64,000 bases of DNA from Alphaproteobacteria bacterium (GTDB taxonomy: Bacteria; Pseudomonadota; Alphaproteobacteria; JAUXUR01), in the NCBI GenBank assembly GCA_030696155.1, contig JAUYSY010000088.1, positions 7,014-71,013 on the forward strand. Direction: 5' to 3'. The notes under the pieces were generated by a model. The model was not told the origin of the DNA. It worked only from the letters and a program-made list of their open reading frames with translations, and made no database searches. Shown here piece by piece: positions 11,281 through 37,378 of the stretch. Made by a program: the position numbers and the translations under genes. Position 1 is the stretch's first letter; each line of letters starts with the position of its first letter.

Positions 11281-11579
11281 GCGTATTTCGCAAAACTGTA
11301 CCATTCGCTAAAAAGATGGTTAAATCAAAATACAAATGGCCTGGTTCAACGACACCTTACAATACAGAAGAAAAAATATTAGAAGTTCAGAACAAACCAA
11401 AGAACAGACCACGAAAATCGTTAAGCTATAAAAAAACGTAGAGAGTTTTTTTATAGCCCATTAAAACAAATCCTGATTGTACATATCACTGTCGATTTAT
11501 CATTTACTATAAATTTAATTGGTTAAAAATGTCATTTTCTATGTTGTCTTTTACACAATTATTTTAACAACAAATTTTA

Positions 11580-12413: not shown

Positions 12414-12428
12414 ATAAAACCCTAAAAC

Positions 12429-12444
12429 TTTCGCGGCCGCGAAA
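12429..12444. promoter_or_regulatory. Candidate parS site: 16-bp perfect palindrome TTTCGCGGCCGCGAAA between parA stop and parB start
   Basis: Perfect palindrome read directly. 18 of 20 positions match the 11829..11848 copy. Confidence 0.45.
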
Positions 12445-12445
12445 A

Positions 12446-13426: not shown

Positions 13427-13678
13427 TTTTATCTCTTAATCTAGTCTTATTGGATAATTACATAAATTTTTACAAGATACAAGTTATATTCAATTAAATC
13501 AAAAAACGTATCATGCTTCTTTTTTAGCTTTTAAGCATAATCCAAAAAATAATAACATTTTCTTTGATTGTTAAAAATTCCCCCTTGACAAGAAGAGTTG
13601 ATTTGTTGGTTAATAGGATATGAATTTTGGGAAAGTTTAAAAAAACATTTTCGTAAAATTTAAATTTTAAACACAAAC

Positions 13679-13711
13679 AAAAAAAACCTTCTGCTATAAC
13701 AGAAGGTTTTT
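13679..13711. other. Perfect stem-loop flanked by an A-run and a T-run (AAAAAAAACCTTCTG-ctataa-CAGAAGGTTTTT) in the parA/rep divergent intergenic region
   Basis: 7-bp perfect stem and 6-nt loop with A8 upstream and T5 downstream. Bidirectional terminator-like, but not at the 3' end of either flanking gene. Confidence 0.4.
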
Positions 13712-13839
13712 CTTACACATGAGCTTCAACACGCTCAAGATCACACAAAGTATCTTGAGTCTATAACAAACAATACGTAATGTCAAACAAATGTTGTTGC
13801 TTGTATGTGTATTAACTTATAAAGAGTTGGATCACACAC

Positions 13840-14943: not shown

Positions 14944-15075
14944 AAAGGTTATACAGGTTTAAAAATATGATGTTTATAAATAAGTATCAATTATTTTTTT
15001 GTTTAAACTTTTGAAAGTGTATCATATGATCTTTAATCTAGTTTTTATTCTGCAGTAAATGTGATATAAAAAAAT

Positions 15076-16239: not shown

Positions 16240-16245
16240 TATAAA

Positions 16246-20777: not shown

Positions 20778-22612
20778 TGTGTGGAATATTTGGATTTTAT
20801 ATTGATGAAAAATTTACAGGCAAATGGAAGAATCTTTTAGAAGATCTTGCAAAACTTTCTCATTCACGTGGAAAAGAAGCAAGTGGTATTGCTATTAGAC
20901 ATCAAGGGAAAATTAATGTATTAAGGCACAAAGATTCAAGCCTTGATTTAATTAAAGATGATGAATTTAAGTCTATTTTAAAAGAAATTGATATTAAAAA
21001 AGGAAATATATTGGTATTGGGTCACGCCCGTCTTTGTACAAATGGTGATCGTTCAAATATATTTAACAATCAACCTGTTTTGGATAAAGAGATTGTTGCT
21101 GTTCATAATGGTATTATTTGTAATTACGAAGATATATGGAAAAACTATCTGAATTCCTCATCTAAATCTGATCTTGATACCGCAATTATACCACCATTTC
21201 TAGACGAAAGCCTTAAAACGCTTTCTATAGAGGAATCCCTACAGAAATTTTATGACGTAATAGAAGGTGATGCATCCCTTGCTTGTTTATTTGCACGTCA
21301 AAATGTATGTACGTTAACAACTAATACTGGATCGCTTTATTATCTTGAGGATTCAAATGGGTCAATTGTTTTTGCTTCACAAAAAACTTTTATAAATACA
21401 ATTTCTAAAAAATATTTTAATAATATAAAAACACATCAACTTAAGCCTGGCGATATAAAAAAAATAGAATTACCACCTTCTATTAAAACTATTTTTCAAG
21501 ATTACAATAAAGTTGCAAAAAATTCTGTCGAACTCAAAAGATGTACTAAATGTATTTTGCCACAGACTTTTCCTGGAATTGCTTTTGATGAAAAAGGCAT
21601 TTGTAATATTTGCAATGAGTATAAATCGTTCAAGCCTTATGGTCGTTATGCCTTAGAAGAATTGTGTGACAAAAATCGTAAGAAAGATGGATCGCCTGAT
21701 TGTGTTTTGGCCTTTAGTGGTGGTCGTGATAGTTCTTATGCGTTGCATTATTTAAAATGTGAGCTAGGTATGAATCCTATCACCGTCACCTATGATTGGG
21801 GTGTTGTAACTGATTTAGCGCGCCGAAATATAGCGCGTATGTGTGGTAAATTGGGAGTTGAAAATATTCTTGTATCTGCGGATATAGATAAAAAAAGAAC
21901 CAATGTTAGGCTTAATTTAAATGCATGGTTTAAAAATCCAGATTTAGGTATGGTTAGTTTATTAATGGCGGGGGACAAACAATTTTTTTATTATCCTCAA
22001 AAAATTAAAAAAGAGCTTGATATAGGATTATTGTTTTTAGCCTCTCATAGAATGGAGCAAAGTAACTTTAAATCTGGATTTTGTGGTGTACATGAAAGAA
22101 ATTCATGGTATTTTGATGTAAAAATTACACAAAAAATAAAAATGATTTGGTATTTTATATCAAATTTTATAAAAACACCATCTTATATTAATAGATCATT
22201 GTTAGATACGGCTTATTCGTTTTATTGTTCTTATATGATGAAACATGATCTTACTGTTTTTTATGATTATATTCAATGGGATGAAGATGTTATTAATTCC
22301 GCATTAAAAGAACATTATAATTGGGAAACGGCAACTTCAACCACAACTACTTGGCGTATAGGTGATGGAACAGCTTCCTTCTATAATTATATCTATTCAA
22401 CAATTGCTGGATTCACAGAGCATGATACATTTAGAAGCACGCAGATAAGAGAAAATATAATTACGCGTGATGAAGCATTATCAATGGTAAAAAGAGACAA
22501 TGTTATGCGCTTTGAGGCTATGAAAGATTATGCAAAAATGATAGGGTTTGATTTAAACAAAGCCATTAATATTATTAATGAAGCACCTAAACTATACTCA
22601 AACGTAAAATAG
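20777..22612 (+). CDS. Fusion amidotransferase: Ntn glutaminase + zinc ribbon + WbuX/PseA-type PP-loop (paralog of 7356..9176)
   Basis: MCGIFGFY start. CTKCILPQTFPGIAFDEKGICNICN. AFSGGRDSSYALHYLK. TAATG overlap with the upstream gene. Confidence 0.6.
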   Translation: MCGIFGFYIDEKFTGKWKNLLEDLAKLSHSRGKEASGIAIRHQGKINVLRHKDSSLDLIKDDEFKSILKEIDIKKGNILVLGHARLCTNGDRSNIFNNQPVLDKEIVAVHNGIICNYEDIWKNYLNSSSKSDLDTAIIPPFLDESLKTLSIEESLQKFYDVIEGDASLACLFARQNVCTLTTNTGSLYYLEDSNGSIVFASQKTFINTISKKYFNNIKTHQLKPGDIKKIELPPSIKTIFQDYNKVAKNSVELKRCTKCILPQTFPGIAFDEKGICNICNEYKSFKPYGRYALEELCDKNRKKDGSPDCVLAFSGGRDSSYALHYLKCELGMNPITVTYDWGVVTDLARRNIARMCGKLGVENILVSADIDKKRTNVRLNLNAWFKNPDLGMVSLLMAGDKQFFYYPQKIKKELDIGLLFLASHRMEQSNFKSGFCGVHERNSWYFDVKITQKIKMIWYFISNFIKTPSYINRSLLDTAYSFYCSYMMKHDLTVFYDYIQWDEDVINSALKEHYNWETATSTTTTWRIGDGTASFYNYIYSTIAGFTEHDTFRSTQIRENIITRDEALSMVKRDNVMRFEAMKDYAKMIGFDLNKAINIINEAPKLYSNVK

Positions 22613-22622
22613 AGATTAAATC

Positions 22623-23570
22623 ATGTACAAAAACAAAAAAATAGCGGTTGTTGTTCCTTCTTTTAACGAAGAAACACAAATATCAAAAGTTATTACGACG
22701 ATGCCTGATTATGTTGATCATATTATTATTATTGATGATAAAAGCACAGATAATATGGCGGCTGTTGTTGAAGAGCATTGTAAAACAAACCCTAAAATTG
22801 TGCTAATTCGTCATGAAATTAATCAAGGTGTTGGCGGGTCAATTGCAACAGGTTATAAATGGGCACGTGATCATGAATGTGATGCAACGGCTGTTATGGC
22901 TGGTGATGGTCAGATGGATCCAAATGATTTAGCAGAGCTTTTAGACCCGGTTGTATCTGGCGAGGTTGATTATTCTAAGGCAAATCGTTTAATTTATGCA
23001 AAAGCTTACGAAATTGTGCCCAAGGTTCGTTTTTGGGGAAATGCTATTTTATCATTACTTACAAAAATAGCATCTGGCTATTGGCATATATCTGATTCAC
23101 AAACAGGTTATACAGTTATTAATCTTAAAGCGCTTCAAATAATCGACTGGGATTTAATGTATAAACGTTATGGCCAACCAAATGATTTGCTAGTAAGGTT
23201 AAATATTCATAATTTTAAAGTGCGCGATATTCCTCAAAAACCTGTTTATAACGTTGGGGAACAATCAAAACTTAAAATTAGAAAAGCCATTTTTACAATA
23301 AGTATTTTATTACTGAAAAAGTTTTTCTGGAGATTAAAAGAAAAATACATTATAAGAGATTTTCATCCTCTTGTTTTTTTCTATTTTTTCGGATTTTTTT
23401 CACTAGGCTGTTCTTTTTTGTTTTCAATTCGATTTTTCAGATTATGGTTTGTTAATGGAGAGGTGCCAGAGGTCACATTGATTTTGTTATTATTCATGCT
23501 TGCTGGCGGTGTTCAAGCCATTTTTTTAGCCATGTGGATGGATCAAGATTATAATAAGGAATTAAGGTGA
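22623..23570 (+). CDS. GT2 polyprenyl-phosphate sugar synthase (GtrB/ArnC/DPM1-like) with C-terminal TM helices
   Basis: IAVVVPSFNEE...IIIIDDKSTD N-terminal GT-A signature. 315 aa with 2-3 C-terminal hydrophobic helices, as in GtrB/ArnC. Confidence 0.85.
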   Translation: MYKNKKIAVVVPSFNEETQISKVITTMPDYVDHIIIIDDKSTDNMAAVVEEHCKTNPKIVLIRHEINQGVGGSIATGYKWARDHECDATAVMAGDGQMDPNDLAELLDPVVSGEVDYSKANRLIYAKAYEIVPKVRFWGNAILSLLTKIASGYWHISDSQTGYTVINLKALQIIDWDLMYKRYGQPNDLLVRLNIHNFKVRDIPQKPVYNVGEQSKLKIRKAIFTISILLLKKFFWRLKEKYIIRDFHPLVFFYFFGFFSLGCSFLFSIRFFRLWFVNGEVPEVTLILLLFMLAGGVQAIFLAMWMDQDYNKELR

Positions 23571-25384
23571 GATTATTTTTTTTAATTTTTTTTTCGTTAT
23601 CATTTGGTTATAATGTTAAAGCTGAAGATTATGAAAAATCTTGGCATAATGTTCCTTTTGTTTCATTTGATAACGAAAAAAAAACAAGTCTTGAGTTTAA
23701 ACCACAAGATATTCTTTTCAGAATAAAAAATGAAAATGATTATATAAATCTTGAGCCCAAAAATCTTCCTTTGAAAATAATTGAACACAAAGAAAATAAA
23801 ATTATTTTTTCAAAAAAATTATTTGATGGAGAAAATCGTATTTCTATTTTTAATAAAAATACTTTTTTAAAAGATATTGAACTCCCAAAAAATTTAAAAA
23901 AATTCTTATTTATGAATGCAGCAATTGGTGAAAAAGAAATTGTTGTTATTTATTATAATCCTGTCTCTTTTAGGCACTTTTTCTATCGAATTAATCTATC
24001 TGATTATTCTTTTGATGAGTTATGGGTAAGAGAAGCTGATTGGGGTAATAAGCATATTTCGAATCATTCATTATGTATTAATGCATTTCATTTTAATGAT
24101 CCAGAATATGGTAATAAAAAAGCTATTCATTTTATAGCTGGAAATGTTGTTTATATTTATAGAAACATTATAACACCAAGTTTTGATCGATTTGAATTTC
24201 CAAAAAATTATGAGTTTTTAACATATCGGCAAGAGGGTGATAGATTCATAGGGTTTTTTAAAAAATCTAATTTTTCAGATAAAATAGATAATACAAAATT
24301 AATACAATCTATTGATTTAAAAACACGTAATGAAACGAATGATACTTTTGAATTCTCAAATGATAAAATTGAGCATTTTTTTGAGTCTTTTGAGCCATCT
24401 GGTATTCTTAATATGGGGTGTAATAATGAAGAAGGTTTGGTGCCATGGTCTCAAACATATTATTTAAACGGTCTTATTAATTTGGTACAAAATTGGCAGA
24501 TGTTTGAAAAACATCTTTCTGATGAAATAATCTTTAAATTAAAAAATAGATTAACAATTGAAATATATTTGTTAGATAGACTGATAAATGAATATGGTCT
24601 TATCTCTTTTAGGTATTCTGTTGATCGTTTTCCAATTTTAGGAACGCTGCATTGTGCTAGGATTTATAGAGTATTAAGACGATATGAAGAACTTCTTATA
24701 TCTCCGTTTAAATTGACATCAAAAAATTATATTGATGATTTATTTTCACAAAAAATAGATCAAAAATTTTTTGACACTATAGTTAGATCAAGTGATGATA
24801 ACACGGGTCTTAAAAAGGGAGAATGTTATTTAACAGCAAAAAAAAATGCGCCTTTTCCACATGATGGATTGAATCTACCCTATAATTATATGAACTCTCT
24901 TACAAGTGAATTTCCCTATATGAATTTAAAAAAGGACTCTCCTCAAGAAAATTTTATTAAAGATGCATCCATTATTTTTCTTAGAAATGAAGAATTTTAT
25001 AAACATTTCCCTCAAAATTTCGAATGGCACTATTCTTGGGGTAAAATGAGGGAGGGAAGAGAGGCAAAAGAAGATCTTTCAATTAATTTACCTTCTTATC
25101 CCCCTGATAATTCAATGGCGCATATATCCTATAAATCTATTGATTTAATAGGTCTTTTGACAGTTTTGAAATTTCATCCAGATGTTTTTCCAAAAGGCTT
25201 TAAAGAATATGCGCTTGATGCCGTTAAAAAAGGGGGTGTATATCCTTTTGTCTATGAAGAATTAAAAGATTATAAATGTGATTTAGATCAAGATGTTGCT
25301 CATTATTATTCTTTTCCATTGGCACCATGGGAATTACAAAGTGCTTCTATTGCTTGGCTTTATTTACTAAATAAAACAAAATGA
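23567..25384 (+). CDS. Hypothetical secreted protein (605 aa)
   Basis: N-terminal signal-peptide-like MRLFFLIFFSLSFGYNVKA. Translationally coupled to GT2 upstream and to the flippase-like gene downstream (4-nt overlaps). Confidence 0.55.
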   Translation: MRLFFLIFFSLSFGYNVKAEDYEKSWHNVPFVSFDNEKKTSLEFKPQDILFRIKNENDYINLEPKNLPLKIIEHKENKIIFSKKLFDGENRISIFNKNTFLKDIELPKNLKKFLFMNAAIGEKEIVVIYYNPVSFRHFFYRINLSDYSFDELWVREADWGNKHISNHSLCINAFHFNDPEYGNKKAIHFIAGNVVYIYRNIITPSFDRFEFPKNYEFLTYRQEGDRFIGFFKKSNFSDKIDNTKLIQSIDLKTRNETNDTFEFSNDKIEHFFESFEPSGILNMGCNNEEGLVPWSQTYYLNGLINLVQNWQMFEKHLSDEIIFKLKNRLTIEIYLLDRLINEYGLISFRYSVDRFPILGTLHCARIYRVLRRYEELLISPFKLTSKNYIDDLFSQKIDQKFFDTIVRSSDDNTGLKKGECYLTAKKNAPFPHDGLNLPYNYMNSLTSEFPYMNLKKDSPQENFIKDASIIFLRNEEFYKHFPQNFEWHYSWGKMREGREAKEDLSINLPSYPPDNSMAHISYKSIDLIGLLTVLKFHPDVFPKGFKEYALDAVKKGGVYPFVYEELKDYKCDLDQDVAHYYSFPLAPWELQSASIAWLYLLNKTK

Positions 25385-26607
25385 ACAAGGCCTTTATTTA
25401 TAATTTTGGAAGCATTGGTGTATTAGGCATTGTTGGTCTTTTGCTTAATATTCTTATGCCTATTTTTTATGGACCAGAAGGATTGGGTCTTTTTAACCTG
25501 ATTATGGCTCTTTTTATTGTAGCCTCGCAATTTTCAGTATTTGGCCTTCATTATTCAACGCTTAAATATACGGCCGAACATACTGAAAACTATATCTTAC
25601 AAAAAACAATTTTAAGTACGGCTCTTTTGAGTTGTGCCATTATGTGTGTTCCCTCTCTACTTTTTTGTTTTGTTATTCCATTCATTATTCCTGGACTTTT
25701 TAAATTTGAAAATGCACAATTTTGTTGGTTTATAGCAATTCCAGGTCTTCTTTTTTTTAGTTTTAATAAAATCTTTCTTTCTTTTATGAATGGTCAAAAA
25801 TTTATGGAGCGATATGCTATTGGTATATCGCTCAGATATATTTTTATGTTACTAACATTTTTGCCATTTATGGTGTTTAGTCTCGATTTAAAATTTATAT
25901 CTTTTGTTTTTTTGATTCCTGAAGTTTTGCTATTTATTTGGTGCATATTTTATAATTATAAATATATAAAAATATCCTATTTAAATTTTGATTGGATTCA
26001 AAAACATTTTACATTTTCTATAAAAAGTTTTTTAGCAGGCGCATCAATTGAGCTCAATAGCAGGGTAGATGTTTTAATTTTATCTTATTTTCAAACAGAA
26101 AAAGAAGTTGGTATATATAGTTTTGCACTTTTTTTTGTAGAAGGTATTTTACAAGTAATTTCAGTTTTTAGAAATATATTAAATCCATATTTAACAGAGC
26201 TTTATTATAAAAAAGATATTGATGAATTATCAAAAAAAATAAAAAAATTTGGTAAAAACTCACTTCTAATATCTTTTGTATTATCTATTTTGTGTGTGCC
26301 ATTATTTTTAATACTTTATTATTTTTTTAATGAAGAATTTTATTTAGAATCTTTGAATGTTTTTTTAATAATTATATTTGGAGTTACAATATCATCATTT
26401 TATCTACCCATTCAATTTTTTGCAAATCAAATAGGTAATCCTGTTCAACAGACAAAGATAAATCTTTTTATATTAGGATCTAATATCATACTTAATATGA
26501 TTTTTGTTTATTTTTTAGGCCTTTATGGTGCTGCTATAGGAACATCACTTAGTTTTGTTTCTTCATTATTTATTATTAGAAATTACATGAAACGGTTTGT
26601 TTCTTAA
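25381..26607 (+). CDS. Polytopic membrane protein, Wzx/MOP-type oligosaccharide flippase-like
   Basis: ~12 predicted TM segments. The C-terminal GLYGAAIGTSLSFVSSLFII region is typical of polysaccharide-biosynthesis (Wzx-like) flippases. The assignment is inference. Confidence 0.45.
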   Translation: MNKAFIYNFGSIGVLGIVGLLLNILMPIFYGPEGLGLFNLIMALFIVASQFSVFGLHYSTLKYTAEHTENYILQKTILSTALLSCAIMCVPSLLFCFVIPFIIPGLFKFENAQFCWFIAIPGLLFFSFNKIFLSFMNGQKFMERYAIGISLRYIFMLLTFLPFMVFSLDLKFISFVFLIPEVLLFIWCIFYNYKYIKISYLNFDWIQKHFTFSIKSFLAGASIELNSRVDVLILSYFQTEKEVGIYSFALFFVEGILQVISVFRNILNPYLTELYYKKDIDELSKKIKKFGKNSLLISFVLSILCVPLFLILYYFFNEEFYLESLNVFLIIIFGVTISSFYLPIQFFANQIGNPVQQTKINLFILGSNIILNMIFVYFLGLYGAAIGTSLSFVSSLFIIRNYMKRFVS

Positions 26608-27557
26608 TTTTTGATCATTTTAGAAATGATTTTATTACCTATGATAGGTGAAAAATGTGAGTAATCAAGCCAATTAGTTCCAGGTTCTGTTTTAAAAAAT
26701 TTTAAAAAATCATTTGAAAAATCAATAAAATGTATATTGTTTTTAGAGCAAGAAAGTGAAATTGATTCTTTCCATTCATTAAATTTATTAAAATTTTTAG
26801 AATTAAAATAAGATAATAACGTTTGAAAATGAATAGGGGATATATAAATAGCTAATTCAATATTTTTTTTTGAACATAATTTAATAATTTTTTCTATAAA
26901 ATTAATAGAGATTTTTTTATAATTAAAATCTTTAAGATAGGATGTGTATCCATCCAACATTAATATTGATGTTTCAGTCTCTCTCTTTGTTGTTTTATGA
27001 AAACCATTTTCTTTCCAACTACCCTCTGTTGATTCAATATCTTTGGTTTTTTTTCTAGAATCTTTAAATGCGGAATAACTTAAAAGAGATCCAATTAAAT
27101 TGTTTATATAAAAATAAATATAATTTTGTTTTATGGTGTCCTCTTTAAAATCTTTTTCTTTTAAAGAGTCAATATTAAACATCCAATAATCAAGACCAAT
27201 TACTATTTTTTTTGGATGATTAATTTTAAAATGGTTTTTCAATATATGATACATTTCATATATTTTAAGGGACGAAATACCTAAATTATAAGGTTTTTTA
27301 TATCCATATTTTAGAAATTCATCTGGATCTATACCTCTATATACTCTTGATGAGCCTATTATAAGCAAATCTGCATTATATTTAATTGCTTTGATTGGCT
27401 TTATAAAGCGCTGTTTTGTATCAAGGGAAAGAGAATGTTTCCAATTTGGTTTATCAGTCCAAAACCAATATGGATCTTTATAAAAATTATAAATACTAAG
27501 TGAAAAGCTTAATATTAAAAAAGTGGAAAATAGGTATAAAAAAAATGAATAACGCAT
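26604..27557 (-). CDS. Periplasmic partner of the MBOAT O-acyltransferase (AlgJ/DltD-like role)
   Basis: N-terminal TM anchor then a soluble domain. Located immediately downstream (same strand) of the MBOAT gene, as in algI-algJ / dltB-dltD pairs. Sequence similarity is not verifiable here. Confidence 0.35.
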   Translation of the reverse strand: MRYSFFLYLFSTFLILSFSLSIYNFYKDPYWFWTDKPNWKHSLSLDTKQRFIKPIKAIKYNADLLIIGSSRVYRGIDPDEFLKYGYKKPYNLGISSLKIYEMYHILKNHFKINHPKKIVIGLDYWMFNIDSLKEKDFKEDTIKQNYIYFYINNLIGSLLSYSAFKDSRKKTKDIESTEGSWKENGFHKTTKRETETSILMLDGYTSYLKDFNYKKISINFIEKIIKLCSKKNIELAIYISPIHFQTLLSYFNSKNFNKFNEWKESISLSCSKNNIHFIDFSNDFLKFFKTEPGTNWLDYSHFSPIIGNKIISKMIKN

Positions 27558-27565
27558 TTTCTCTC

Positions 27566-28963
27566 CTAAAAATTAAAATATAAAAAAGAATCTGTTTTGG
27601 AAATTTTTAAAACAGATAAAAAACAAATGATTCCAAATATGATTCCAAAAAATTTATATAATTTTTTATTTTTAAGTAAATTAAAATGTAAAAATTCAAA
27701 TGAATTAGGTGAAATTGTACAAAATAAAAATACTAAAATTAAATAAAAAATAGTAGATAGGTTGTTTTTAATGTTTTCAATTGCAATGAAATCTATATTT
27801 AAAAGACCTTTATATATATCAAAAGCTTGATATAGGTCTTTTGATCTAAAAATAACCCACATTAAATGTACAATTAAAAAAGTAAACAAAATTTTTAATA
27901 TTTTTGGTAAATTTATATTAAAATTATCTCGTATAATATGATTTATTGTAATTAAAACGCCATATAATAAGCCCCAAACAATAAAATTATAGCCTGCGCC
28001 ATGCCATAAACCAGCAATTGTCATGGTAAGGATTATATTAATGTATTTTCTATATGTTCCATATTTATTGCCACCTAAATTAAAATAAATATATTCTTTT
28101 ATAAAATTTGAAAGTGTTATATGCCATCTTTGCCAAAATTCAATAATTGATGCTGATTTATAAGGAGAATTAAAGTTTTTAGGGAGTTTTATACCAAATA
28201 GATATCCCAATCCAAGAGCCATTTCAGAATAACCTGAAAAATCAAAATAAATTTGAAATGTGTATGATAATGTACCAATCCAGTGATCTAAAAAATTTTT
28301 ATCTATGAATGGTTCTGAAAAATATGCATCTGCTAAAATTGAAAAAGAATCAGCTATTATTACTTTTTTAAATAAACCAATTGAAAAAAAAAATAAACCT
28401 ATATTGATATAATTGATTGTTGGATTTATAGAGCTCGCTTTTTCTATAGAATCTCTATATTCTCTGTAATAATAAATTGGTCCAGCGATTAATCTTGGAA
28501 AAAATGTTATAAAAAAAAGATAATTAGAAAAACTTTTTATTGTTGTTTTTTTATTGTATATATCTGATAGAAAAGATATTTGTTCAAATGTAAAAAACGA
28601 TATACCCAAAGGAAGAATTACATTAACAAATGTAAAATTTTCAAATAAAGATGACGATATAAAATTAAAATATTTAAAATAAAATAATAATGATAAATTT
28701 AAAAATATGGATACAAAAAATATTGTTTTTTTTAAATATTTTTTTTTAAATGAAGAAATAGATATTCCTGATATGTAATTGAATAAAATAGATATTACGA
28801 ATATTTTTAGATCAAAAAAAGACCAAACACTATAGAAGATCAATGAGATTATAGAAATTGTATATTGTTTGATTTCTATCTTTTTTAAAGAATTCACAAT
28901 TCTATATAGAAAAATAGAAATTGGTAAAAAAATATATATAAAGATATATGAATTGAATAGCAT
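27566..28963 (-). CDS. Membrane-bound O-acyltransferase (MBOAT; AlgI/DltB family)
   Basis: Signature WQRWHITLSNFIKEYIYFNLGGNKYG ... LWHGAGYNFIVWGLLYG with the conserved catalytic His. Confidence 0.9.
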   Translation of the reverse strand: MLFNSYIFIYIFLPISIFLYRIVNSLKKIEIKQYTISIISLIFYSVWSFFDLKIFVISILFNYISGISISSFKKKYLKKTIFFVSIFLNLSLLFYFKYFNFISSSLFENFTFVNVILPLGISFFTFEQISFLSDIYNKKTTIKSFSNYLFFITFFPRLIAGPIYYYREYRDSIEKASSINPTINYINIGLFFFSIGLFKKVIIADSFSILADAYFSEPFIDKNFLDHWIGTLSYTFQIYFDFSGYSEMALGLGYLFGIKLPKNFNSPYKSASIIEFWQRWHITLSNFIKEYIYFNLGGNKYGTYRKYINIILTMTIAGLWHGAGYNFIVWGLLYGVLITINHIIRDNFNINLPKILKILFTFLIVHLMWVIFRSKDLYQAFDIYKGLLNIDFIAIENIKNNLSTIFYLILVFLFCTISPNSFEFLHFNLLKNKKLYKFFGIIFGIICFLSVLKISKTDSFLYFNF

Positions 28964-29001
28964 AGATCCTCGTGGTATGGTTTTTTTTTAAAAAGGCCTA
29001 A

Positions 29002-31029
29002 TTGATGAGTTTATATACCACAATTTTTCTATCTTGTATGTTTTTTTTCGTTTTACCTTTTTTTATGTCTTGTATTTTCGATCAAAAAAACAGATTAAAA
29101 ACAATCATTTCATTTGGTTTGATGCCTCCAATTTTAGGACTTATTGTTTATTATTTATTCTCTCTTTTGCCAGGGAAAGAAACATATTTTTATTTAAATT
29201 CAATATTATTGATATTCATTTTTGCTTTATTAGGTTTTTTCTTAAAAAGAAAAAAAATAACTTTTGAACGTGAAATATATGCAGGAATTCTTTTGTTTGT
29301 AATATTTTTTGTTATGTTGCTAGGGTTACCTCTTTACGAAAATGATGCTCTTGAATATGCCAATATGGCTAATATTTTTTTTAGAGATAAAAGTTTTTCT
29401 ATATATCCTTTTGTAGAAGCAGATCCAATAACTGGATTTTATACACCGATTCGGCATCCTTTAGGATATCCTTCTCTACTTGTATTTCAATTGCTTATAG
29501 GATTTAAGGTAGAATTAGCGGTAAAATTTACTAATGCTTATTATATCGTTCTTTTTGTCTTTTTGATTTCTAAATATGTTGGGCGTTATGGGATATTATA
29601 CATATTATCAGTTCCACTATTTATTTATGTTTTTTCGACATGTCAAATTGATGTTTATCGTATTTTCTTATTCATCTTATCAATTTGTATTTTGTCCGAA
29701 TTTTTTGAACGCAAACAAAGTATTTTTTGGACGTCTTTAACACTTGGATTAACGCTTCTGGCACACTCTATTTCTGTTTTATGTCTAATGTTTATAGGGT
29801 TTGGCTTTGTTTATATGCCTAAAAAAGAATGGTGGAAATTAGCCATTGTTTGTATTGGATCAATTTTGATTGGAGGTGAGGTCTATATTAAAAACTTTCT
29901 TGAATTTGGAAAAATAGTAACAGACACTAATCCAGTATGGGAGCTTGATAATATTAATGAAAAAGCAGATCTTGCTTTTAGAAGGCGTATAGATACGACA
30001 TTTAATTGGATTTTATTTGGTCTTCTTCAGGGGTTTACGAAAATACATTTTTTTGGGATTCATTTTTATTTAGCATTTTATGCAATAATCAAAAATGGGT
30101 TTAAAAAAAGGTCAATTCTTTACACGATGTCTTGCTTTGGCGTCTTTTTGTTTTTTTTGATTATTGTATTTTCTGGAAATCTAGGCGCTAAAAATCCAAG
30201 GTATTTTTTAACGATAATTCCTTTATTATTTTTTATATATCAACCTGTTATAAGCAATTCATTGCGTAATATATATATTGTTTTTACGTTGTTTTCTTTG
30301 TATGGGTTTAAATTTTTTTCCAATTGGTCAACATATTCGATTAATGATCCTATTCATCAACATGTAAGTAAAAAATTCTTTGATCAATTGAATGTATTAA
30401 AATTAGATGGAAAAGTATTGGCTTTTGAGCAAGAGCTTTTTGTGTTTTACGGCAAAAGTAAAATTCTAAAGGATTTAGATCCTGTTATGATAGATTTTTA
30501 TAAAATGAATACAAAAGAAAATGCACTTAAATTTTTAGAAAAAAATGATATAAAGTATATATATTTATCACCATATATGCCGGCAACTTTCTATAATTCA
30601 TATATAGGTGAAATTGCGGGAAATCCTACATATTCTAAATTACTCATAGATGAATCGGGATATAGGCTTTTTAAAATAGATAAAATAAAAATGATAAGTC
30701 CTGTTGTTGAGTTGAAAAATAACCTTATTATTGAAGACGTTAATAATATATTTTTTAAAAATATATATCAAAAAAATCAAATTTATAATTTCAAATATAT
30801 AGATAATTATGATAGTAATTATGACGTATGTATGAATTTAGAATTTGATGGTAATGGATTTGCTGAAATTTATGTAGGAGATGTCAGTTATGGGCGTGTG
30901 GGCGTGCTTAAAAAGAAAAACTTTTATCTTCAGTTTAAGCAAAAAAATGGGCTGGATCATTTAACAATTTCTACTTATAAAAATACTTTAATGAATAAAC
31001 ATAGCATATTATATTGTAAACATGATTAA
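29002..31029 (+). CDS. GT-C fold membrane glycosyltransferase-like protein fused to a C-terminal partner-type domain (third paralog)
   Basis: ENDALEY + RHPLGYPSLLVFQ in the N-terminal membrane part. The C-terminal soluble part carries NPTYSKLLIDESGYRLFKIDK, which matches the DUF partner motifs of 2097..3419 and 19497..20777. Confidence 0.55.
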   Translation: MMSLYTTIFLSCMFFFVLPFFMSCIFDQKNRLKTIISFGLMPPILGLIVYYLFSLLPGKETYFYLNSILLIFIFALLGFFLKRKKITFEREIYAGILLFVIFFVMLLGLPLYENDALEYANMANIFFRDKSFSIYPFVEADPITGFYTPIRHPLGYPSLLVFQLLIGFKVELAVKFTNAYYIVLFVFLISKYVGRYGILYILSVPLFIYVFSTCQIDVYRIFLFILSICILSEFFERKQSIFWTSLTLGLTLLAHSISVLCLMFIGFGFVYMPKKEWWKLAIVCIGSILIGGEVYIKNFLEFGKIVTDTNPVWELDNINEKADLAFRRRIDTTFNWILFGLLQGFTKIHFFGIHFYLAFYAIIKNGFKKRSILYTMSCFGVFLFFLIIVFSGNLGAKNPRYFLTIIPLLFFIYQPVISNSLRNIYIVFTLFSLYGFKFFSNWSTYSINDPIHQHVSKKFFDQLNVLKLDGKVLAFEQELFVFYGKSKILKDLDPVMIDFYKMNTKENALKFLEKNDIKYIYLSPYMPATFYNSYIGEIAGNPTYSKLLIDESGYRLFKIDKIKMISPVVELKNNLIIEDVNNIFFKNIYQKNQIYNFKYIDNYDSNYDVCMNLEFDGNGFAEIYVGDVSYGRVGVLKKKNFYLQFKQKNGLDHLTISTYKNTLMNKHSILYCKHD

Positions 31030-32254
31030 TGAAAATATAAGCATTTTTTCTGAAAATTTATTAAAAATAAAAAATATAAATCTTATATCGATTGGTTTGT
31101 TTTTTAATAAAATATTAACATCGATAAGTTTATTTTTTATAGCTAAATTCTATTCTCCACAAGAATTTGGTGAGTTTGGATATTATATGTCGATCTTGTC
31201 AATATTATTTCCATTTTCAATATTAGGAATGGAAAATTTTATATTTATAAACAAAAATAAGTCAAAAACAATAAATAATTTTATTTATATTCATTCTTTT
31301 TTCTTTTTTTTATTTTTATCTATAATGTTTTTAGTTTTTTTTAGTGAAAAAAATTATCTATTTCTTATTATGCCGTTAAATTTATTTTTAATGACTATAT
31401 TTGATGTGATTTTAAATAATTTTATAAAAGATAAAAAGTTTAGTTTAAATTTATTATATAATTTTTTGTTTTGCATAATTACAATTGCCATTCAAATTTC
31501 TAGTGTTTTGTTTTTTAATAAAAATGTTGCATATTTAATTATTGGTTTTATGGTTGGTTATTTATTACCATTAAGCTTTATTTTTTTTATAAAAGAAAAC
31601 TCGTTTTCATTTAAAAAAAATAATATTCTATTTTTTTATAAAAAATTTTTATTAAAAAATAAAAATTATATTTTTATGTATTTAATTCTAACAACATTAG
31701 ATTGCTTAATTCAGTTTTTTCCATTTTTTTATATTAAAAATACATTCGGATTTGAAGATTTAGGGTCATATTTCTTATGTAACAAAATTTTTTATTTACC
31801 AATAGCAATTATTGGTATGTCTCTTTCTAAATATTTTTTAATTGAAATGAGTAATCCTAAAATTGTTATAAAAAATATTTATTTTTTTATAATAATTTCA
31901 TTATTTCTAGCAATTTTAATTTATGGATCATTGTTTATTTTTAATAAAATAGGTTTGTTTGTTTATTTTTTAGGTCAACAATGGATAGAATTAGAATATT
32001 TGATAAATATCAATATATTAAAATTTATTTTTGAATTTTTTGTTTTTCCATTTATTGGAATATTTATTATTAAAAATCAACAAAAAAAACTAATTTTTAT
32101 AAAAGTATTATTTTTAATAATATTATTCTTAGGGTTTTTGTTTATAAAAGAATTAAGTTTTATTGATGGTATAATATTTTTGAATGTTTTAAATATTATA
32201 TTTTATATAACAATATGTTGCTATTGCTTCAAAATTTTATTCAATAAATCTTAA
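31022..32254 (+). CDS. Polytopic membrane protein, possible second Wzx-like flippase
   Basis: 410 aa with ~12 TM and a size and layout similar to 25381..26607. Low-complexity, AT-driven sequence. Confidence 0.35.
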   Translation: MINENISIFSENLLKIKNINLISIGLFFNKILTSISLFFIAKFYSPQEFGEFGYYMSILSILFPFSILGMENFIFINKNKSKTINNFIYIHSFFFFLFLSIMFLVFFSEKNYLFLIMPLNLFLMTIFDVILNNFIKDKKFSLNLLYNFLFCIITIAIQISSVLFFNKNVAYLIIGFMVGYLLPLSFIFFIKENSFSFKKNNILFFYKKFLLKNKNYIFMYLILTTLDCLIQFFPFFYIKNTFGFEDLGSYFLCNKIFYLPIAIIGMSLSKYFLIEMSNPKIVIKNIYFFIIISLFLAILIYGSLFIFNKIGLFVYFLGQQWIELEYLININILKFIFEFFVFPFIGIFIIKNQQKKLIFIKVLFLIILFLGFLFIKELSFIDGIIFLNVLNIIFYITICCYCFKILFNKS

Positions 32255-32391
32255 GGATTTTAATATTTTTTTCTTTGTTAACTTTTCATATTTTTTATAT
32301 TACGATGAAAGCATGTGTTAAAAAATGAACATTCTTGTAATGTCATACGCACTTATAAAAATATAAGAAAAATTAATGATAGTGGGTTTGT

Positions 32392-33915
32392 ATGATTAAA
32401 ATAGTAACTGTAATTTTTTTTTTCATAATTTTTCAAGCAGTTGCAGTCAAAAATCTAACAATTGAATTCAAAATAAACAGCCAGGATTTAATAGATAATA
32501 AAGTTGAAAATATTTTTGAATTTACAGATGAATTTGGAAAAAAAATAATTTCTATTTTTTATTTATTTTTTTGGCAAACAACAAGAGCTTCAAATTCATT
32601 TGGTATTACCTTTTCTGTTCATCCTGATTTTATGCAAAACGTTTCTGAAAATAATTATTCCTATAACAATCCTTTTGTAGATTCAACTGGCAATGGTCTT
32701 ATGGTGCAGGATAGAGATTTATATACTTATCCTTTAAGTACTAAACAACAGGTTTTTCTATCAAAATATGATTTGGTTAATAATGTTTTTGTTAATTTAA
32801 ATATATCTCCTTTTAGTCCTTATTACACGTATTCTAATGATACAATATTAAGCGGAGATAGAAAAAATATTACATCTAATATATTTCCAACATTGACAGA
32901 AAATACTCCTGGTGTTATTCAATCGTATCTTTTGTACAAAGATTATATTTGTTTGAGTGTTCTAGTTGATGCAGCGCATGATTTAGTTACTGGTACAGGA
33001 TTTTGTGCCATCAAATTGTATAAACTAAATACTGATCGTTGGTTATTTTTATGGGCATCTAGACTTCAAGATGATGATGATTATCCATATTGTATTGCAT
33101 ATCAATCTAATGCTTTTATTTTTTGTACACACCTTGGTTGGATATATAGTGTTTCTGAAAGCGGCGGCATAAAAAATATAAAACTAAATTATGAAAAAAT
33201 TAGCAATCAAGTATATTGTGCTTTAAAAGTCAACGGTGAAATGCTGTATGGACATTATCCATCTGGTCGTATTCATTCAATAACAGATACGCAACAAATA
33301 GATACAATGGAGCCACCTATTCTCAATCCTGTTGGATCAAACGAGAGAGAATTAATGGCCATGTGCCTTTATGCTGGCTCTATTTATGCTGGAATTTGGC
33401 CTTGGGGTGAAGTTTATAGAAAAAATATTAATACATCCGTTTGGAGCCAAGCAATGAGATGTTTTAGTAAACCTGCTTTTAATCAACTTATAGAAGCGCC
33501 TTATGCGGATACTGTTAGAGAAAAGGGATGGACATTAGATTATAATGAATTTGGGCAAAGAGTGTACCAAATGCTTCTTTTTGATGAATATCTTTTTATG
33601 TCTACTTGTGGAAAAGATGGTTATTTTAGAGATTCTTGGAATGAAGCTGAAGGAGATAGTGATATTGATTTAAATGAATATGGAAAAATTCATTCAATTA
33701 GAATTAATGGACAATATACTTTTTATCTTGATCCATTAAACGATTTTACAACAATTAAAATTGAAATATTAAACACTTCAGGAAATATTAATTTTTATAT
33801 TAACAATATTCTTTCAAAAACATTAGAAAATTGTGTTGTTAATATTCCAGATAATTATAATTTTAAATTTTTTAATTACAGTAACCCAACTAATGTTTCT
33901 TTAAGTTCAGATTAA
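32392..33915 (+). CDS. Family-A paralog 3: hypothetical secreted protein
   Basis: Signal-peptide-like N-terminus MIKIVTVIFFFIIFQAVA. Same conserved blocks as the other two paralogs. The C-terminal half is ~80% identical to 9793..11280. Confidence 0.6.
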   Translation: MIKIVTVIFFFIIFQAVAVKNLTIEFKINSQDLIDNKVENIFEFTDEFGKKIISIFYLFFWQTTRASNSFGITFSVHPDFMQNVSENNYSYNNPFVDSTGNGLMVQDRDLYTYPLSTKQQVFLSKYDLVNNVFVNLNISPFSPYYTYSNDTILSGDRKNITSNIFPTLTENTPGVIQSYLLYKDYICLSVLVDAAHDLVTGTGFCAIKLYKLNTDRWLFLWASRLQDDDDYPYCIAYQSNAFIFCTHLGWIYSVSESGGIKNIKLNYEKISNQVYCALKVNGEMLYGHYPSGRIHSITDTQQIDTMEPPILNPVGSNERELMAMCLYAGSIYAGIWPWGEVYRKNINTSVWSQAMRCFSKPAFNQLIEAPYADTVREKGWTLDYNEFGQRVYQMLLFDEYLFMSTCGKDGYFRDSWNEAEGDSDIDLNEYGKIHSIRINGQYTFYLDPLNDFTTIKIEILNTSGNINFYINNILSKTLENCVVNIPDNYNFKFFNYSNPTNVSLSSD

Positions 33916-34107
33916 CAAATTCTATAAGTTATATTTTAGTATCATCAAACGGCCGTTTTTTGATACTAAAATATCGATATTAAAAAACGACTGAATCAAA
34001 GATATATAGAGTGCTTAAAATTATCATTAACTTATATCATAAATCAATATATCATAAACTCATCAATACTAACCATTTATGATATAAAAATAAGGAAGCT
34101 ATTCTTA

Positions 34108-34677
34108 ATGAGCAAATTAATCGGATATGCACGTGTTTCAACATCAGGTCAGGAACTCAATCTTCAGATCGATGCGCTTAAAAAAATTGGATGTGAAAAA
34201 AAGAATATTTTTACGGATGTTGTCTCTGGCTCTAAAACGGATAGGCCTGGATTAAATGAGTGTTTAGAAACTTTACAATCAGGCGACACACTTGTTGTTT
34301 GGCGATTAGACCGTTTAGGGAGGTCAATGTCTCATCTTGTTTCAACTATCGAAAATTTGATTGCCAAAAAAATTGGATTTAAATCTATTTCAGATGGACA
34401 TATAGATACAACGACGGCATCAGGAGAGCTTATATTTAATATATTTTCGTCTCTTGCTCAATTTGAACGACGCCTTATTCAAGAAAGAACAAAATCAGGA
34501 TTAGAGGCAGCACGAGCAAGGGGCAGGGTAGGGGGCAGAAAACCAATAAGCAAATATAACTCAAAAGTATTAGCGGCTCAAAAATTACATCACGATAAAT
34601 CAATGCCAATAGAAAATATTTGCAAGGAGTTGCAGATTTCAAAACCAACTTTATATCGCTATCTTAAATTGAAGTGA
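34108..34677 (+). CDS. Serine recombinase (resolvase/invertase family)
   Basis: GYARVSTSGQ catalytic-Ser motif and C-terminal HTH. 189 aa. Confidence 0.9.
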   Translation: MSKLIGYARVSTSGQELNLQIDALKKIGCEKKNIFTDVVSGSKTDRPGLNECLETLQSGDTLVVWRLDRLGRSMSHLVSTIENLIAKKIGFKSISDGHIDTTTASGELIFNIFSSLAQFERRLIQERTKSGLEAARARGRVGGRKPISKYNSKVLAAQKLHHDKSMPIENICKELQISKPTLYRYLKLK

Positions 34678-34983: not shown

Positions 34984-35793
34984 TTATACATTAATAACCT
35001 CTTGAATCTTAGGCTTAGTGTATTCAGCAGCTCCCGCTTTAACGATCAGATTGTTACATGGCTGCCAGTTGGCTTTGCTATGTGTATGACCGCAAAGTGC
35101 TAAAAATTCAATATCAGTATTTGCTTGAGCGATTTGCATCAGCACATCGCCTGTTATTTTTGATGAGAAGAATGGAAGAAAATCATCGTTGCTTATTTTA
35201 CCTTCATGCATACAGGCTTCTTTAAATGGTGGCACATGAATCAAAATAATAACTTTTTTAGGACGATTATTGCTAATGGCATCAGACAATCTCGCTTTCA
35301 AATGCTGGGCATCTTGATCGGCTAATTGCTGCATTTTCTCAAGTAACATGTATTTACCAAAAATGTTGCTTTGAAACAGATCGATGATCATTCGGCTGTC
35401 ATTTAGGGTGACACAACTATTGGTATAATCCCCATATCTGCCATCGGCCCAACAATCTTCACCGAGCAAAATAGTTTGACTCCCTAGATCGTGCACACCA
35501 GACGCTGGAAGCCAATGAAGTAACGGTTCATTTTTGGTTAGATCGCGCATTTCTTGGCGTAATGAATCCACTTGGCCGCGGTAATAATCATGGTTGCCGA
35601 GCACAAAATATATTGGTTTTTGAATTTCTTTGACCATTTCCTTTAGAATTTCTGAAACTGATGGCGCTTCAGCAATATCGCCGCTAATCAAAATCATATC
35701 ACCGGATATCGCTATTACTTTTTTGTAAAACTCCATTCTGCGCTCTGGCCCTAGAAAGTTAAGATGAATGTCTGTTAGCCAAATCAATTTCAT
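34984..35793 (-). CDS. Calcineurin-like metallophosphoesterase
   Basis: LTDIHLN, ISGDIAE and VLGNHDYY motifs. 4-nt overlap with upstream AbiEii-like gene. Confidence 0.8.
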   Translation of the reverse strand: MKLIWLTDIHLNFLGPERRMEFYKKVIAISGDMILISGDIAEAPSVSEILKEMVKEIQKPIYFVLGNHDYYRGQVDSLRQEMRDLTKNEPLLHWLPASGVHDLGSQTILLGEDCWADGRYGDYTNSCVTLNDSRMIIDLFQSNIFGKYMLLEKMQQLADQDAQHLKARLSDAISNNRPKKVIILIHVPPFKEACMHEGKISNDDFLPFFSSKITGDVLMQIAQANTDIEFLALCGHTHSKANWQPCNNLIVKAGAAEYTKPKIQEVINV

Positions 35794-36575
35794 GGGAGCC
35801 TGCTAATAATCTTATCTATAACGAGTTGATAAGCTTCTTCGAAGTTCCAGTGCAATTTGGAAGGCAATAAAATGCTCATATCCATATGGAAATCACGATG
35901 ATTTTTCTTCTGATCGAGATTTTTTATGAATTCTTCCCGTGAGATCTTCACATCGTTATAAATGCAATATTTAGAAAAAATTTCAAAAACTCTATCCAAG
36001 TTAATCAATTCTTGCTTTGTAACGTACCATAAATCAAATAAATCTCGCCCTTTTCGACGTTGGTATAAGGCGCGCAGTTTAGTTGCTATAAGCTCATCAA
36101 TTTCATAGGTGACAATATCCGCAGAGCCATTAAACCATTCAGATTGCACATCTAATTTCTCTAAGCGAAAAGGTAATACCTGAAAATGCTCAGTGGTGTT
36201 TATTTCAATTTTTAGTTTTGCTGGTAGTGTATTAATAGCCTCGTATTTATAAATTAATTTGGCACTGCGTTCGGTAATTTTCCATTTTGGATCACCAAGC
36301 CATGGTTTTAGAAGCGCTCTGATTGCATCAATTGTTTTTCCGATAGGTTCAGATCTTTTTTGTACGAAATCAATGTCTTCACTATATCTTGCTGGTGGCT
36401 TTAGAAATAGTTTATTGAGTGCGGTACCGCCACGAAAAACAAGTGCATCTTTTATGTATGGCTCGTTATACAAATCAACCAGAGCCCGGCTAATAATTAA
36501 ATCTTGTTCTATTTGTTCAAGTGTCTGCCATTTGACAGTTTGACGCCAATGTTCAATGAAAATTTCTGGAATCAT
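35790..36575 (-). CDS. AbiEii/AbiGii-family nucleotidyltransferase toxin (type IV TA)
   Basis: FRGGTALNKLF...RYSEDIDFV signature of the DUF1814/AbiEii family. 4-nt overlap with the upstream antitoxin-like gene. Confidence 0.7.
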   Translation of the reverse strand: MIPEIFIEHWRQTVKWQTLEQIEQDLIISRALVDLYNEPYIKDALVFRGGTALNKLFLKPPARYSEDIDFVQKRSEPIGKTIDAIRALLKPWLGDPKWKITERSAKLIYKYEAINTLPAKLKIEINTTEHFQVLPFRLEKLDVQSEWFNGSADIVTYEIDELIATKLRALYQRRKGRDLFDLWYVTKQELINLDRVFEIFSKYCIYNDVKISREEFIKNLDQKKNHRDFHMDMSILLPSKLHWNFEEAYQLVIDKIISRLP

Positions 36576-37378
36576 AAATCGCTCTCTATTTCTGTATTAT
36601 TAATAATTCTCCACTTTTTACATCTGGGATAGCCGGTTTTAGGTATTTCAGAAGCAAGTGGGAGATATTTTAGTTTGTGCTCTGCGACATACGAAGCAAG
36701 AGCATTAATAATTATTTCAGCATGGTTATCATCTATAATTTCAATATTGTCTAGGATATAACCAATGCGTTGCAATTGATGTTCAGCTTTGATATCCTTC
36801 GCAAGTTTTATAAGCTTGGTAGCATCTAAGTTTTCAACCAGCTCTGATAAAACCGTTGCTATATGGTTTAAGCCACCTGCATGGTTCGGGTAATTCAGTA
36901 AATCAAGCGCTATCAATTCAGGGGTTGCTATTTTAAGGTAACCGGTACTAACAGTAAAATTTTGGATCGGTAAAGCTGATATGGATTTTTTATAAATAAA
37001 CTCTATCTCTATATCACCAAAAGTTAATGAATGTTTAATTCTTTTGTCTGATATAACCTGGAATCTAGCAGGTTTTTGGTGCGTAGCTCCATGGAACAAC
37101 CCTGCGGTTAGCAACGCAACATAATAATTAGCACCTAAATATTGCATCATCAAAGGAACTAATTCTTTTGCTGGTATAGAACCATGCGGTTGATGTTCAG
37201 GTGGAATGATGACATACAAACCTCTGGCAGGTGAAATCACATCCCTAGTTTTAAGTAACCGATGTAAGGAAACCCTCGCATGGTTGTGTGAAACGTGAAA
37301 TTGCGCAACGATATCCTCGATGGTAAAGCAGCGTTTTCCATCTTTTCGGATATCTTTTATGTATGATTGTAAATTCAT
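36572..37378 (-). CDS. AbiEi-family antitoxin / transcriptional regulator
   Basis: 268 aa with N-terminal wHTH-like region. Operon position upstream of the AbiEii-like toxin. GC-richer than flanks. Confidence 0.5.
   Translation of the reverse strand: MNLQSYIKDIRKDGKRCFTIEDIVAQFHVSHNHARVSLHRLLKTRDVISPARGLYVIIPPEHQPHGSIPAKELVPLMMQYLGANYYVALLTAGLFHGATHQKPARFQVISDKRIKHSLTFGDIEIEFIYKKSISALPIQNFTVSTGYLKIATPELIALDLLNYPNHAGGLNHIATVLSELVENLDATKLIKLAKDIKAEHQLQRIGYILDNIEIIDDNHAEIIINALASYVAEHKLKYLPLASEIPKTGYPRCKKWRIINNTEIESDL

Follow-up and report, generated by a model that had tools for sequence, protein, structure and literature searches.

A one-chain form of a probable two-part periplasmic glycosyltransferase in a low-GC glycan cluster of an alphaproteobacterium

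We have analysed a stretch of 64,000 nucleotides from an alphaproteobacterial genome assembly (contig JAUYSY010000088.1; hereafter the window) with a focus on the intact open reading frame at 29002..31029 on the forward strand. It comprises 675 codons when counted from TTG 29002, and its product combines a polytopic membrane core, an anchor helix, a small alpha/beta domain and a beta tail in a single chain. We read this protein, with a probability of roughly 0.7, as the one-chain form of a two-part periplasmic glycosyltransferase, the core of which is a very divergent GT-C enzyme nearest to the family PMT_2. In the same window, the two parts are also found as separate genes, and core and partner module very likely work as one enzyme. 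The window contains exactly three cores and three copies of the shared alpha/beta domain. A preliminary description, made from the letters alone, had described the 675-amino-acid protein as a fusion of the two components that are separate and overlapping in the other two units.

The likelier start of the protein is ATG 29005, because a database protein of 674 amino acids (P0001) is 100% identical to it. Its core (residues 1–416; 29002..30249) was delimited by BLASTP matches to the paralogues in the window, by invariant residues and by PMT_2 matches in homologues, and the profile hidden Markov model (HMM) of the core scores 434 bits against the N-terminal part of the composite. Hydropathy and the charge pattern indicate a large loop at residues 110–160 (29329..29481; YENDALEY...RHPLGYP) that holds an invariant D115 and an invariant H152-P153. 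A helix that ends in an NPRY motif and a short loop (SNSLRN) lead to a further helix at residues 420–440 (30259..30321), which is colinear with the N-terminal anchor helix of the partners according to alignment and a comparison of the junctions. The shared domain of ~91 residues follows at residues 469–559 (30406..30678), as placed by profile and alignment evidence. The last 116 residues (30679..31026) are predicted by structure modelling, at low confidence, to be all-beta.

Split unit 1 lies on the reverse strand. Its core of 479 amino acids (3391..4830) matches PMT_2 with 23.4 bits (cutoff 26.1) and the core of the 675-residue protein in BLASTP. Its partner of 440 amino acids (2097..3419) consists, by alignment and modelling, of an anchor helix, the shared domain (residues 66–157; 2949..3224) and two beta-rich domains, and the two genes overlap by 29 nt. 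Split unit 2 is on the forward strand, with a core of 480 amino acids (18097..19539), likewise found by BLASTP, and a partner of 413 amino acids (19536..20777) that carries the shared domain at residues 58–140 (19707..19955) according to the alignment. Here, the stop codon of the core and the start codon of the partner share a 4-nt ATGA overlap with GGAG just upstream. The start at TTG 19497 previously given for this partner is probably wrong; ATG 19536 is favoured by the ATGA overlap, the GGAG, the length of the database protein P0007 (413 amino acids) and the fact that it aligns with where partner 1 starts. Judging from the gene overlaps (4 and 29 nt), the module gene is apparently translationally coupled to the core gene in two of the three units.

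The three cores are real but old paralogues, because residues ~110–435 of the 675-residue protein (~330 residues) align with both membrane paralogues at 26–27% identity and BLASTP E values of 9e-13 (3391..4830) and 6e-18 (18097..19539). The C-terminal part of the protein is homologous to both partners, as had been claimed, and it is only the N-terminal parts of the partners that match. BLASTP with compositional adjustment pairs residues 510–561 of the fused protein with residues 109–159 of partner 1 (E 1e-4) and 103–155 of partner 2 (E 2e-3), and a fused orthologue from a GC-richer relative (P0004) matches the partner of its own genome in the same register (E 0.034). Comparison of four fused orthologues with four partners by hhalign gave an E value of 2.5e-6 (probability 88.7%) over 114 columns in conserved order, with residues 450–564 of the fused protein corresponding to residues 47–163 of the partner; the aligned stretch directly follows the last helix in the former and the anchor helix in the latter. 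Composition was controlled for by searching all 150 open reading frames of at least 60 amino acids in the window, which share the same composition. An HMM of the fused C-termini placed the two partners on top (14.0 and 12.0 bits; next 4.3), and the reverse search with a partner HMM placed the fused protein on top (13.1 bits; next 4.7). The preliminary description had named low-complexity similarity lacking block order as the outcome that would speak against it; what we found is 114 ordered columns and first ranks among 150 reading frames.

More distant sequences link the two forms further. A profile made from partners only was searched exhaustively against 1.84 billion representative sequences and gave 21 matches. 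An HMM made only from the C-termini of the fused orthologues scored 65.9 bits with P0023, 64.2 with P0021, 62.8 with P0025, 62.4 with P0026 and 35.7 with P0012. Composition cannot explain these links of 36–66 bits, because several of the intermediates come from GC-rich genomes (e.g. P0026, P0014 and P0020). In an alignment of 25 sequences, the ~91-residue domain has almost no gaps over the spans given above for the three proteins in the window. The sequence strings quoted in the preliminary description are all present: NPTYSKLLIDESGYRLFKIDK is residues 541–561 of the 675-residue protein, and the partner strings are residues 124–159 of the product of 2097..3419 (reverse strand) and residues 107–142 of partner 2, counted from ATG 19536. 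Their register was slightly off at the left end, where NPTYSK pairs with NDPHLSQ and not with NDPTLYS.

The fusion is partial with respect to the partner. Core, anchor helix and ~91-residue domain are indeed present in one chain, as proposed, but the tail of the partners, 273–283 residues long after the shared domain, is not detectable in the fused protein, where 116 residues follow the domain. These 116 residues have no significant similarity to the partner tails (hhalign E 0.05–0.12), and only a short G-x-G strand motif recurs. Homology of the tails by iterative HMM search was also considered and is unproven; the search, run on a very small database, expanded only by matches to a short ‘x-L-x-L-x-G-x-G-F’ motif. 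The proposed alignment of residues ~430–675 with the partners thus holds over residues 450–564 and is not significant in the tail beyond, and no more than about a quarter of the partner is represented in the window's composite. The 675-residue protein is not a fusion of the window's own partner genes and represents an old, separate lineage; its core is 24–26% identical to the paralogues and its domain 19–24% identical to the partners in the window.

The order of elements at the junction is comparable in the two forms. In the fused protein, the NPRY helix is followed by SNSLRN, the helix at 420–440 and the domain. In the split pairs, the NPRY helix is followed by a basic C-terminus (KRIWR), the stop codon, the start codon, a basic N-terminus, the anchor helix and the domain. 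The junction is colinear between fused and split forms, and the module would be joined to the core via the same short cytoplasmic loop. A periplasmic placement of the module is supported by the positive-inside pattern at the junction and by the N-in anchor of the partners; hydropathy segments overlapped, such that helix parity was not fixed from hydropathy.

Judged by the libraries searched, the ~91-residue alpha/beta domain appears to belong to no described family. The partners, the shared domain and the C-termini of long fused homologues have no match in Pfam or NCBIfam, and a profile of the shared domain found no meaningful match among the sequences of the PDB. The idea that the domain might resemble the C-terminal periplasmic domain of ArnT was rejected (hhalign against E. 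coli ArnT, E 0.54). A structure model of partner 1 has a pLDDT of 65.8 overall, with 72–90 in the domain region and 60–85 in the tail regions. In this model, the anchor helix leads to a small alpha/beta domain, whose four strands are interspersed with helices, and then to two beta-rich domains. In Foldseek searches, the beta-rich domains resemble SGBP-B, tandem CBM22 (CBM, carbohydrate-binding module), CBM4 and discoidin domains with E values down to 2.6e-5 but low TM-scores. The tails of the units fall into length classes of ~116–196, 234–291 and 334–434 residues, which suggests one to three sandwich modules.

The evidence that core and partner form a functional unit, as had been proposed for the window, comes from whole-partner fusions, adjacency and co-divergence in other bacteria. 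Proteins of 844–1160 amino acids consist of the membrane core and an entire partner. In P0012 (844 amino acids), P0014 (889) and P0018 (896), the core HMM scores 238–302 bits over the first ~460 residues, and the partner profile scores 45–96 bits over the ~260–365 residues after the core. These three proteins and a 920-amino-acid protein at locus L010 are full composites with both components in the same order. A scan of one genome per species yielded 14 loci, which were pooled with the contigs of other homologues; a genome scan with patterns built from the partners gave no confirmed loci. Among 29 units at 21 loci, in addition to the three in the window, core and domain are adjacent or fused in every unit that is complete on its contig; L016 is cut before the core and the core at L024 is truncated at the contig end. 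Split units are found at L001, L003–5, L007–9, L011, L014, L015, L017 and L021–24, and fused units at L001 (684 amino acids), L002 (691), L010 (739 and 920), L012 (785 and 1160), L013 (984), L015 (752), L018 (845), L019 (875) and L020 (853). The hosts belong to the Alpha-, Beta- and Gammaproteobacteria, Bdellovibrionia and Planctomycetota, and include Puniceispirillum, Caedibacter, Bosea thiooxidans DSM 9653, Accumulibacter, Hydrogenophaga and Sedimenticola.

Across 26 units, the pairwise identities of core and domain are correlated with a Mantel r of 0.863, a value reached in none of 2000 permutations (0/2000), and r is 0.66 for pairs with less than 45% core identity. Paralogous units within one genome retain their own cognate type of partner. 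We take the co-divergence as supporting evidence only, because shared species history adds to the correlation. Gene fusion would likewise count as evidence for functional linkage and not as proof of a physical complex.

As to the direction of change, the one-chain layout may be ancestral and the gene pairs in the window products of fission, which would leave the functional link unchanged. We consider the odds on this slightly short of even. The 26 compared units divide equally into 13 fused and 13 split, and the fused forms are spread over the most divergent lineages. Every sampled member of the lineage of the 675-residue protein is fused (the window, L001, L002 and the 739-amino-acid protein of L010), the split point, where stop and start codons overlap, lies in a short cytoplasmic loop, and solved GT-C enzymes such as STT3 and TMTC have long C-terminal luminal domains (PMC6801728). 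On the other hand, both states occur inside single clades. The type of unit 2, for example, is split in the window and at L001 and L007–L009, and fused in Caedibacter (the 920-amino-acid protein of L010), P0014 and P0018. Because both states occur within single clades, changes between fusion and fission went both ways or recurred.

The assignment of the core to GT-C, in which we have good confidence, is based mainly on homologues. PMT_2 is the sole recurrent Pfam family in 21 cores, with six of these matching at E≤0.01 (best 1.7e-8), and the core homologue in Hydrogenophaga, at 30.9 bits, is the only one of the 21 to pass the cutoff of 26.1. Fourteen residues are invariant in the 21 cores (D115, Y119, Y135, P136, G145, H152, P153, P205, D217, H255, G303, G352, R400 and Y401). 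N114 is nearly invariant, giving E-N-D in the fused lineage and G/Q-N-D elsewhere. According to hydropathy and the model helices, D115 opens a loop of ~55 residues, and another large loop lies ahead of the last helices. GT-C enzymes have an early large external loop that starts with a conserved acidic motif (DxD, DD, ExD or the like), and a further large loop ahead of their last helices (PMC6801728), which makes the loop at 110–160 a candidate equivalent of the first external loop.

Several observations weigh against a GT-C core. The 675-residue protein itself has no GT-C match in Pfam and no curated family match in Pfam or NCBIfam; its membership is by transitive homology only, because the curated matches lie in homologues. 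In the window proteins, the Asp loop comes after four helices instead of one. Searches of PDB sequences with core profiles made from 8 and 21 sequences found no meaningful match, no ArnT chain turned up in the PDB searches with core or domain profiles, and the hhalign comparison of the core with E. coli ArnT was insignificant (E 0.018, probability 2.6%). AlphaFold modelled the fused protein poorly (pLDDT 43.5), and the model was unusable for docking of domains. In favour of GT-C, the top eight Foldseek matches of this model are nevertheless all STT3, DPY19 or AglB entries or STT3-containing complexes, though at non-significant values (E≥0.011, TM-score 0.15–0.19). The ‘GT-C’ label of the preliminary description is supported by the PMT_2 matches of homologues and not by a match of the protein itself, and the evidence for it is weak to moderate.

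These observations leave some room for another reading, in which the core acts as a Wzy-, WaaL- or EpsG-like polymerase, ligase or exporter and the partner as a periplasmic co-factor similar to a chain-length regulator. We consider this improbable. The cores gave single weak Pfam matches to Wzy_C (E 0.018) and EpsG (E 0.2), the cluster encodes a Wzx flippase and no recognised Wzy, and no PDB sequence match links the core to a solved GT-C enzyme. However, PMT_2 is the only family to recur and one homologue exceeds its cutoff; three paralogous units in one cluster fit decorating enzymes better than polymerases; a GT2 enzyme resembling polyprenyl-phosphate-sugar synthases is a conserved neighbour; and the weak fold matches are to STT3 and DPY19 and include no ligase or polymerase.

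The three units are part of a low-GC (21–32%) glycan cluster in 1..34000, which further encodes a GT4 enzyme, a true AsnB, the GT2 enzyme, Wzx, an MBOAT protein with a DUF1574-like partner, and FemAB-like and GNAT proteins. The GT2 glycosyltransferase (315 amino acids; 22623..23570, forward strand) is found with 45–89% identity beside units across phyla. It is likely to be a synthase of the lipid-linked donor, because its best matches are to polyprenyl- and dolichyl-phosphate sugar synthases. Directly upstream, at 20777..22612 on the forward strand, is a class-II glutamine amidotransferase (GATase) fused to a WbuX-like N-acetyl sugar amidotransferase (611 amino acids), with a paralogue at 7356..9176 on the reverse strand. 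This type of fusion (~610–690 amino acids) also adjoins units at most of the loci, which come from several phyla (L001, L003, L007–L014, L016–L018, L020, L022 and L023). WbuX enzymes are normally paired with separate HisH/HisF-like proteins, and the fusion therefore looks like a different form of ammonia supply. The WbuX-type family forms acetamidino groups on O-chain sugars (PMC10607449). None of the papers in the library searched combines a term for N-acetyl sugar amidotransferase with one for GT-C.

A polytopic protein of 410 amino acids (31022..32254, forward strand) overlaps the end of the fused gene by 8 nt and is found with 30–51% identity directly downstream of the fused type at L001, L002 and L010. 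It has no match in the family libraries, and its N-terminus resembles, by eye, a Wzx-type flippase. A 605-amino-acid protein at 23567..25384 (forward strand), also devoid of Pfam and NCBIfam matches, has counterparts of 52% identity at L001 and L007 and matches part of a 1063-amino-acid reading frame that adjoins the fused unit in Hydrogenophaga (L020). On the reverse strand, 26604..28963 encodes an MBOAT protein (DltB-like, 162 bits, below cutoff) with a DUF1574-like partner of 317 amino acids. The pair and the fused gene are transcribed divergently, their start codons being only ~40 bp apart, and the pair recurs at L002 and L014. Its presence suggests that the same extracytoplasmic glycan is O-acylated.

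Genes for ParB and ParA, a protein with a DnaA N-terminal domain, a serine resolvase and an AbiEi/AbiEii toxin-antitoxin pair are located at 11580..13426 (reverse strand), 13840..14943 (forward), 34108..34677 (forward) and 35790..37378 (reverse). The GC content climbs from 21–32% to 28–41% at ~34 kb. Given these genes and the GC shift, the glycan cluster may reside on a plasmid or a mobile island. A resolvase and a transposase flank the unit at L003. In the higher-GC half of the window, 38685..42911 (forward strand) encodes a 1408-amino-acid protein with haemagglutinin repeats (Fil_haemagg_2).

We infer that the units most probably decorate a surface glycan in the periplasm, with the partner as an acceptor-binding cap. 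The GT2 enzyme of the cluster would load a hexosamine-type sugar onto polyprenyl phosphate, the WbuX-like amidotransferase and other neighbours may modify the lipid-borne sugar, and a flippase would export the loaded lipid. The core, with D115 as candidate catalytic base, would then transfer the sugar to the glycan of the Wzx-type cluster. The alpha/beta domain would cap the core, and the beta-sandwich tail would bind the acceptor and set the specificity, such that three co-diverged units could provide three different decorations. Parts of this scheme have evidence counting against them. The best matches of the GT2 enzyme, to PpgS, AglJ and dolichyl-phosphate hexose transferase (DPhHxTase), are all far below curated cutoffs; the GATase-WbuX fusions score 120–141 bits with TIGR03573, below its cutoff of 203; and sugar binding by the tail is a guess, because the TM-scores of the CBM-like matches are low (0.15–0.19).

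Taken together, these elements may tentatively be read as a widespread pathway that has not been described. A PpgS-like GT2 enzyme would load an N-acetyl-hexosamine onto polyprenyl phosphate, the GATase-WbuX enzyme would make an acetamidino or amidated sugar on the carrier, FemAB-like and deacetylase-like enzymes would change it further, and a divergent GT-C enzyme that needs an anchored acceptor subunit of alpha/beta domain plus CBM would attach the sugar to a surface glycan. The ~91-residue domain would then be a new obligate accessory domain of GT-C enzymes.

The window also encodes three paralogous proteins of ~500 amino acids, at 105..1664 (reverse strand), 9793..11280 (forward) and 32392..33915 (forward). 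They are 58–65% identical, have hydrophobic, signal-peptide-like N-termini and match no Pfam or NCBIfam family, and their number equals that of the core/partner units. A distant homologue (24% identity) is encoded 2 kb downstream of the unit at L017, in a metagenome-assembled genome of Burkholderiales. These proteins could be a further component or a substrate. If they were substrates, the units would be protein O-glycosyltransferases, similar to bacterial PMT, that modify the three secreted paralogues. The nearest family in Pfam is one of protein mannosyltransferases, and both the equal numbers and the homologue near L017 would fit. We nevertheless find this quite unlikely, since none of the other 20 loci encodes the ~500-amino-acid protein in the part that was sequenced, the genes conserved around the units (Wzx, GT2, GT4 and the sugar amidotransferase) belong to glycan pathways, and PMT_2 also takes in lipid and glycan transferases. 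Hardly credible, finally, is a chance similarity from the K/N/I/Y-rich composition of an AT-rich genome, with the C-terminus of the 675-residue protein as an unrelated extension: GC is low throughout the cluster, the direct pairwise matches are short (52–53 columns) and weak (27–30 bits) and HMMER between the window proteins themselves gives just 12–14 bits, but chance is refuted by the hhalign result, the window control with its reciprocal top ranks and the intermediates, as well as by the compositionally adjusted BLAST, the repeated register in a GC-richer genome and the nearly gap-free alignment.

What is new, as far as the libraries and literature searched are concerned, is threefold. The alpha/beta domain has not been described, nor has its obligatory pairing with this divergent core family (together with the fact that the module is frequently its own, apparently translationally coupled gene), nor the conserved link of the units to a GATase-WbuX enzyme. 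The analysis thus defines a domain that has no model in Pfam or NCBIfam and a conserved neighbourhood that lacks a family assignment in current annotation. GT-C enzymes decorate bacterial surface glycans and thereby affect serotype, phage susceptibility and antimicrobial resistance, and their recognition of acceptors is poorly understood. The split and fused units form a natural series of one enzyme that includes cultured hosts (Bosea thiooxidans DSM 9653 and Hydrogenophaga sp. IBVHS1), which makes the role of the periplasmic module genetically testable.

A GT-C core with a C-terminal periplasmic domain for acceptor binding is well known from STT3/PglB/AglB, ArnT, Emb/AftD and TMTC, and the one-chain 675-residue protein is for this reason conventional in architecture. 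Rosetta-stone, or domain fusion, inference of functional linkage was reportedly introduced by Marcotte and Enright in 1999. The present case is similar to that scheme in that, both here and elsewhere, two proteins encoded separately in a genome correspond to different, non-overlapping parts of a single protein. It differs from a full case in that the window's own composite takes only part of the partner.

Among the enzymes that may serve as models, those of the PMT_2/ArnT type (Pfam PF13231, clan GT-C; CAZy GT39 and GT83) share a polytopic core, a conserved Asp at the start of a large loop with H-P-(L/P) ~35 residues on, another large loop ahead of the last helices, a GT2 enzyme of the (here probable) lipid-sugar synthase type in the same cluster and, in the one-chain form, a C-terminal periplasmic domain. 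The window proteins differ in having three extra N-terminal helices and, as periplasmic module, an undescribed domain that is often a separate gene. The analogy with oligosaccharyltransferases drawn in the preliminary description is apt at the level of architecture: STT3, PglB and AglB also have, besides a membrane catalytic core, a globular periplasmic domain at the C-terminus that takes part in acceptor binding, and the isolated C-terminal globular domain of AglB (3vu0_B) is among the Foldseek matches of the fused model, with a probability of 0.99 but an E value of 0.17. It does not extend to sequence or significant structural matches, and the WWDYG motif is missing, there being no WWD or WW.[YWF]G in the 675-residue protein; the genomic context suggests glycan decoration rather than N-glycosylation.

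The mycobacterial EmbA/B/C and AftD proteins are GT-C arabinosyltransferases with periplasmic CBM-like domains that are thought to hold the acceptor glycan. They resemble the proposed form of the units in joining a GT-C core to periplasmic beta-sandwich domains of the carbohydrate-binding type, and the partner model matches tandem CBM-like folds. They have no detectable sequence relation to the units, in which a distinct alpha/beta domain precedes the sandwiches and these can be on a separate polypeptide. Finally, three-component periplasmic glycosylation systems (reviewed in PMC11127046), including GtrABC, ArnC/ArnT, PpgS/Rv3779 and GT136, are composed, as proposed here, of a lipid-sugar synthase of the GT2 family together with a flippase and a GT-C enzyme that acts on a surface glycan after export. 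GT136 also has a beta-rich C-terminal periplasmic domain, and the GT2 enzyme of the window is most similar to PpgS and AglJ. No small flippase of the GtrA type was identified in the window cluster, and the units described here add to the three-component scheme an obligatory periplasmic partner, separate or fused, and a GATase-WbuX enzyme as conserved neighbour.

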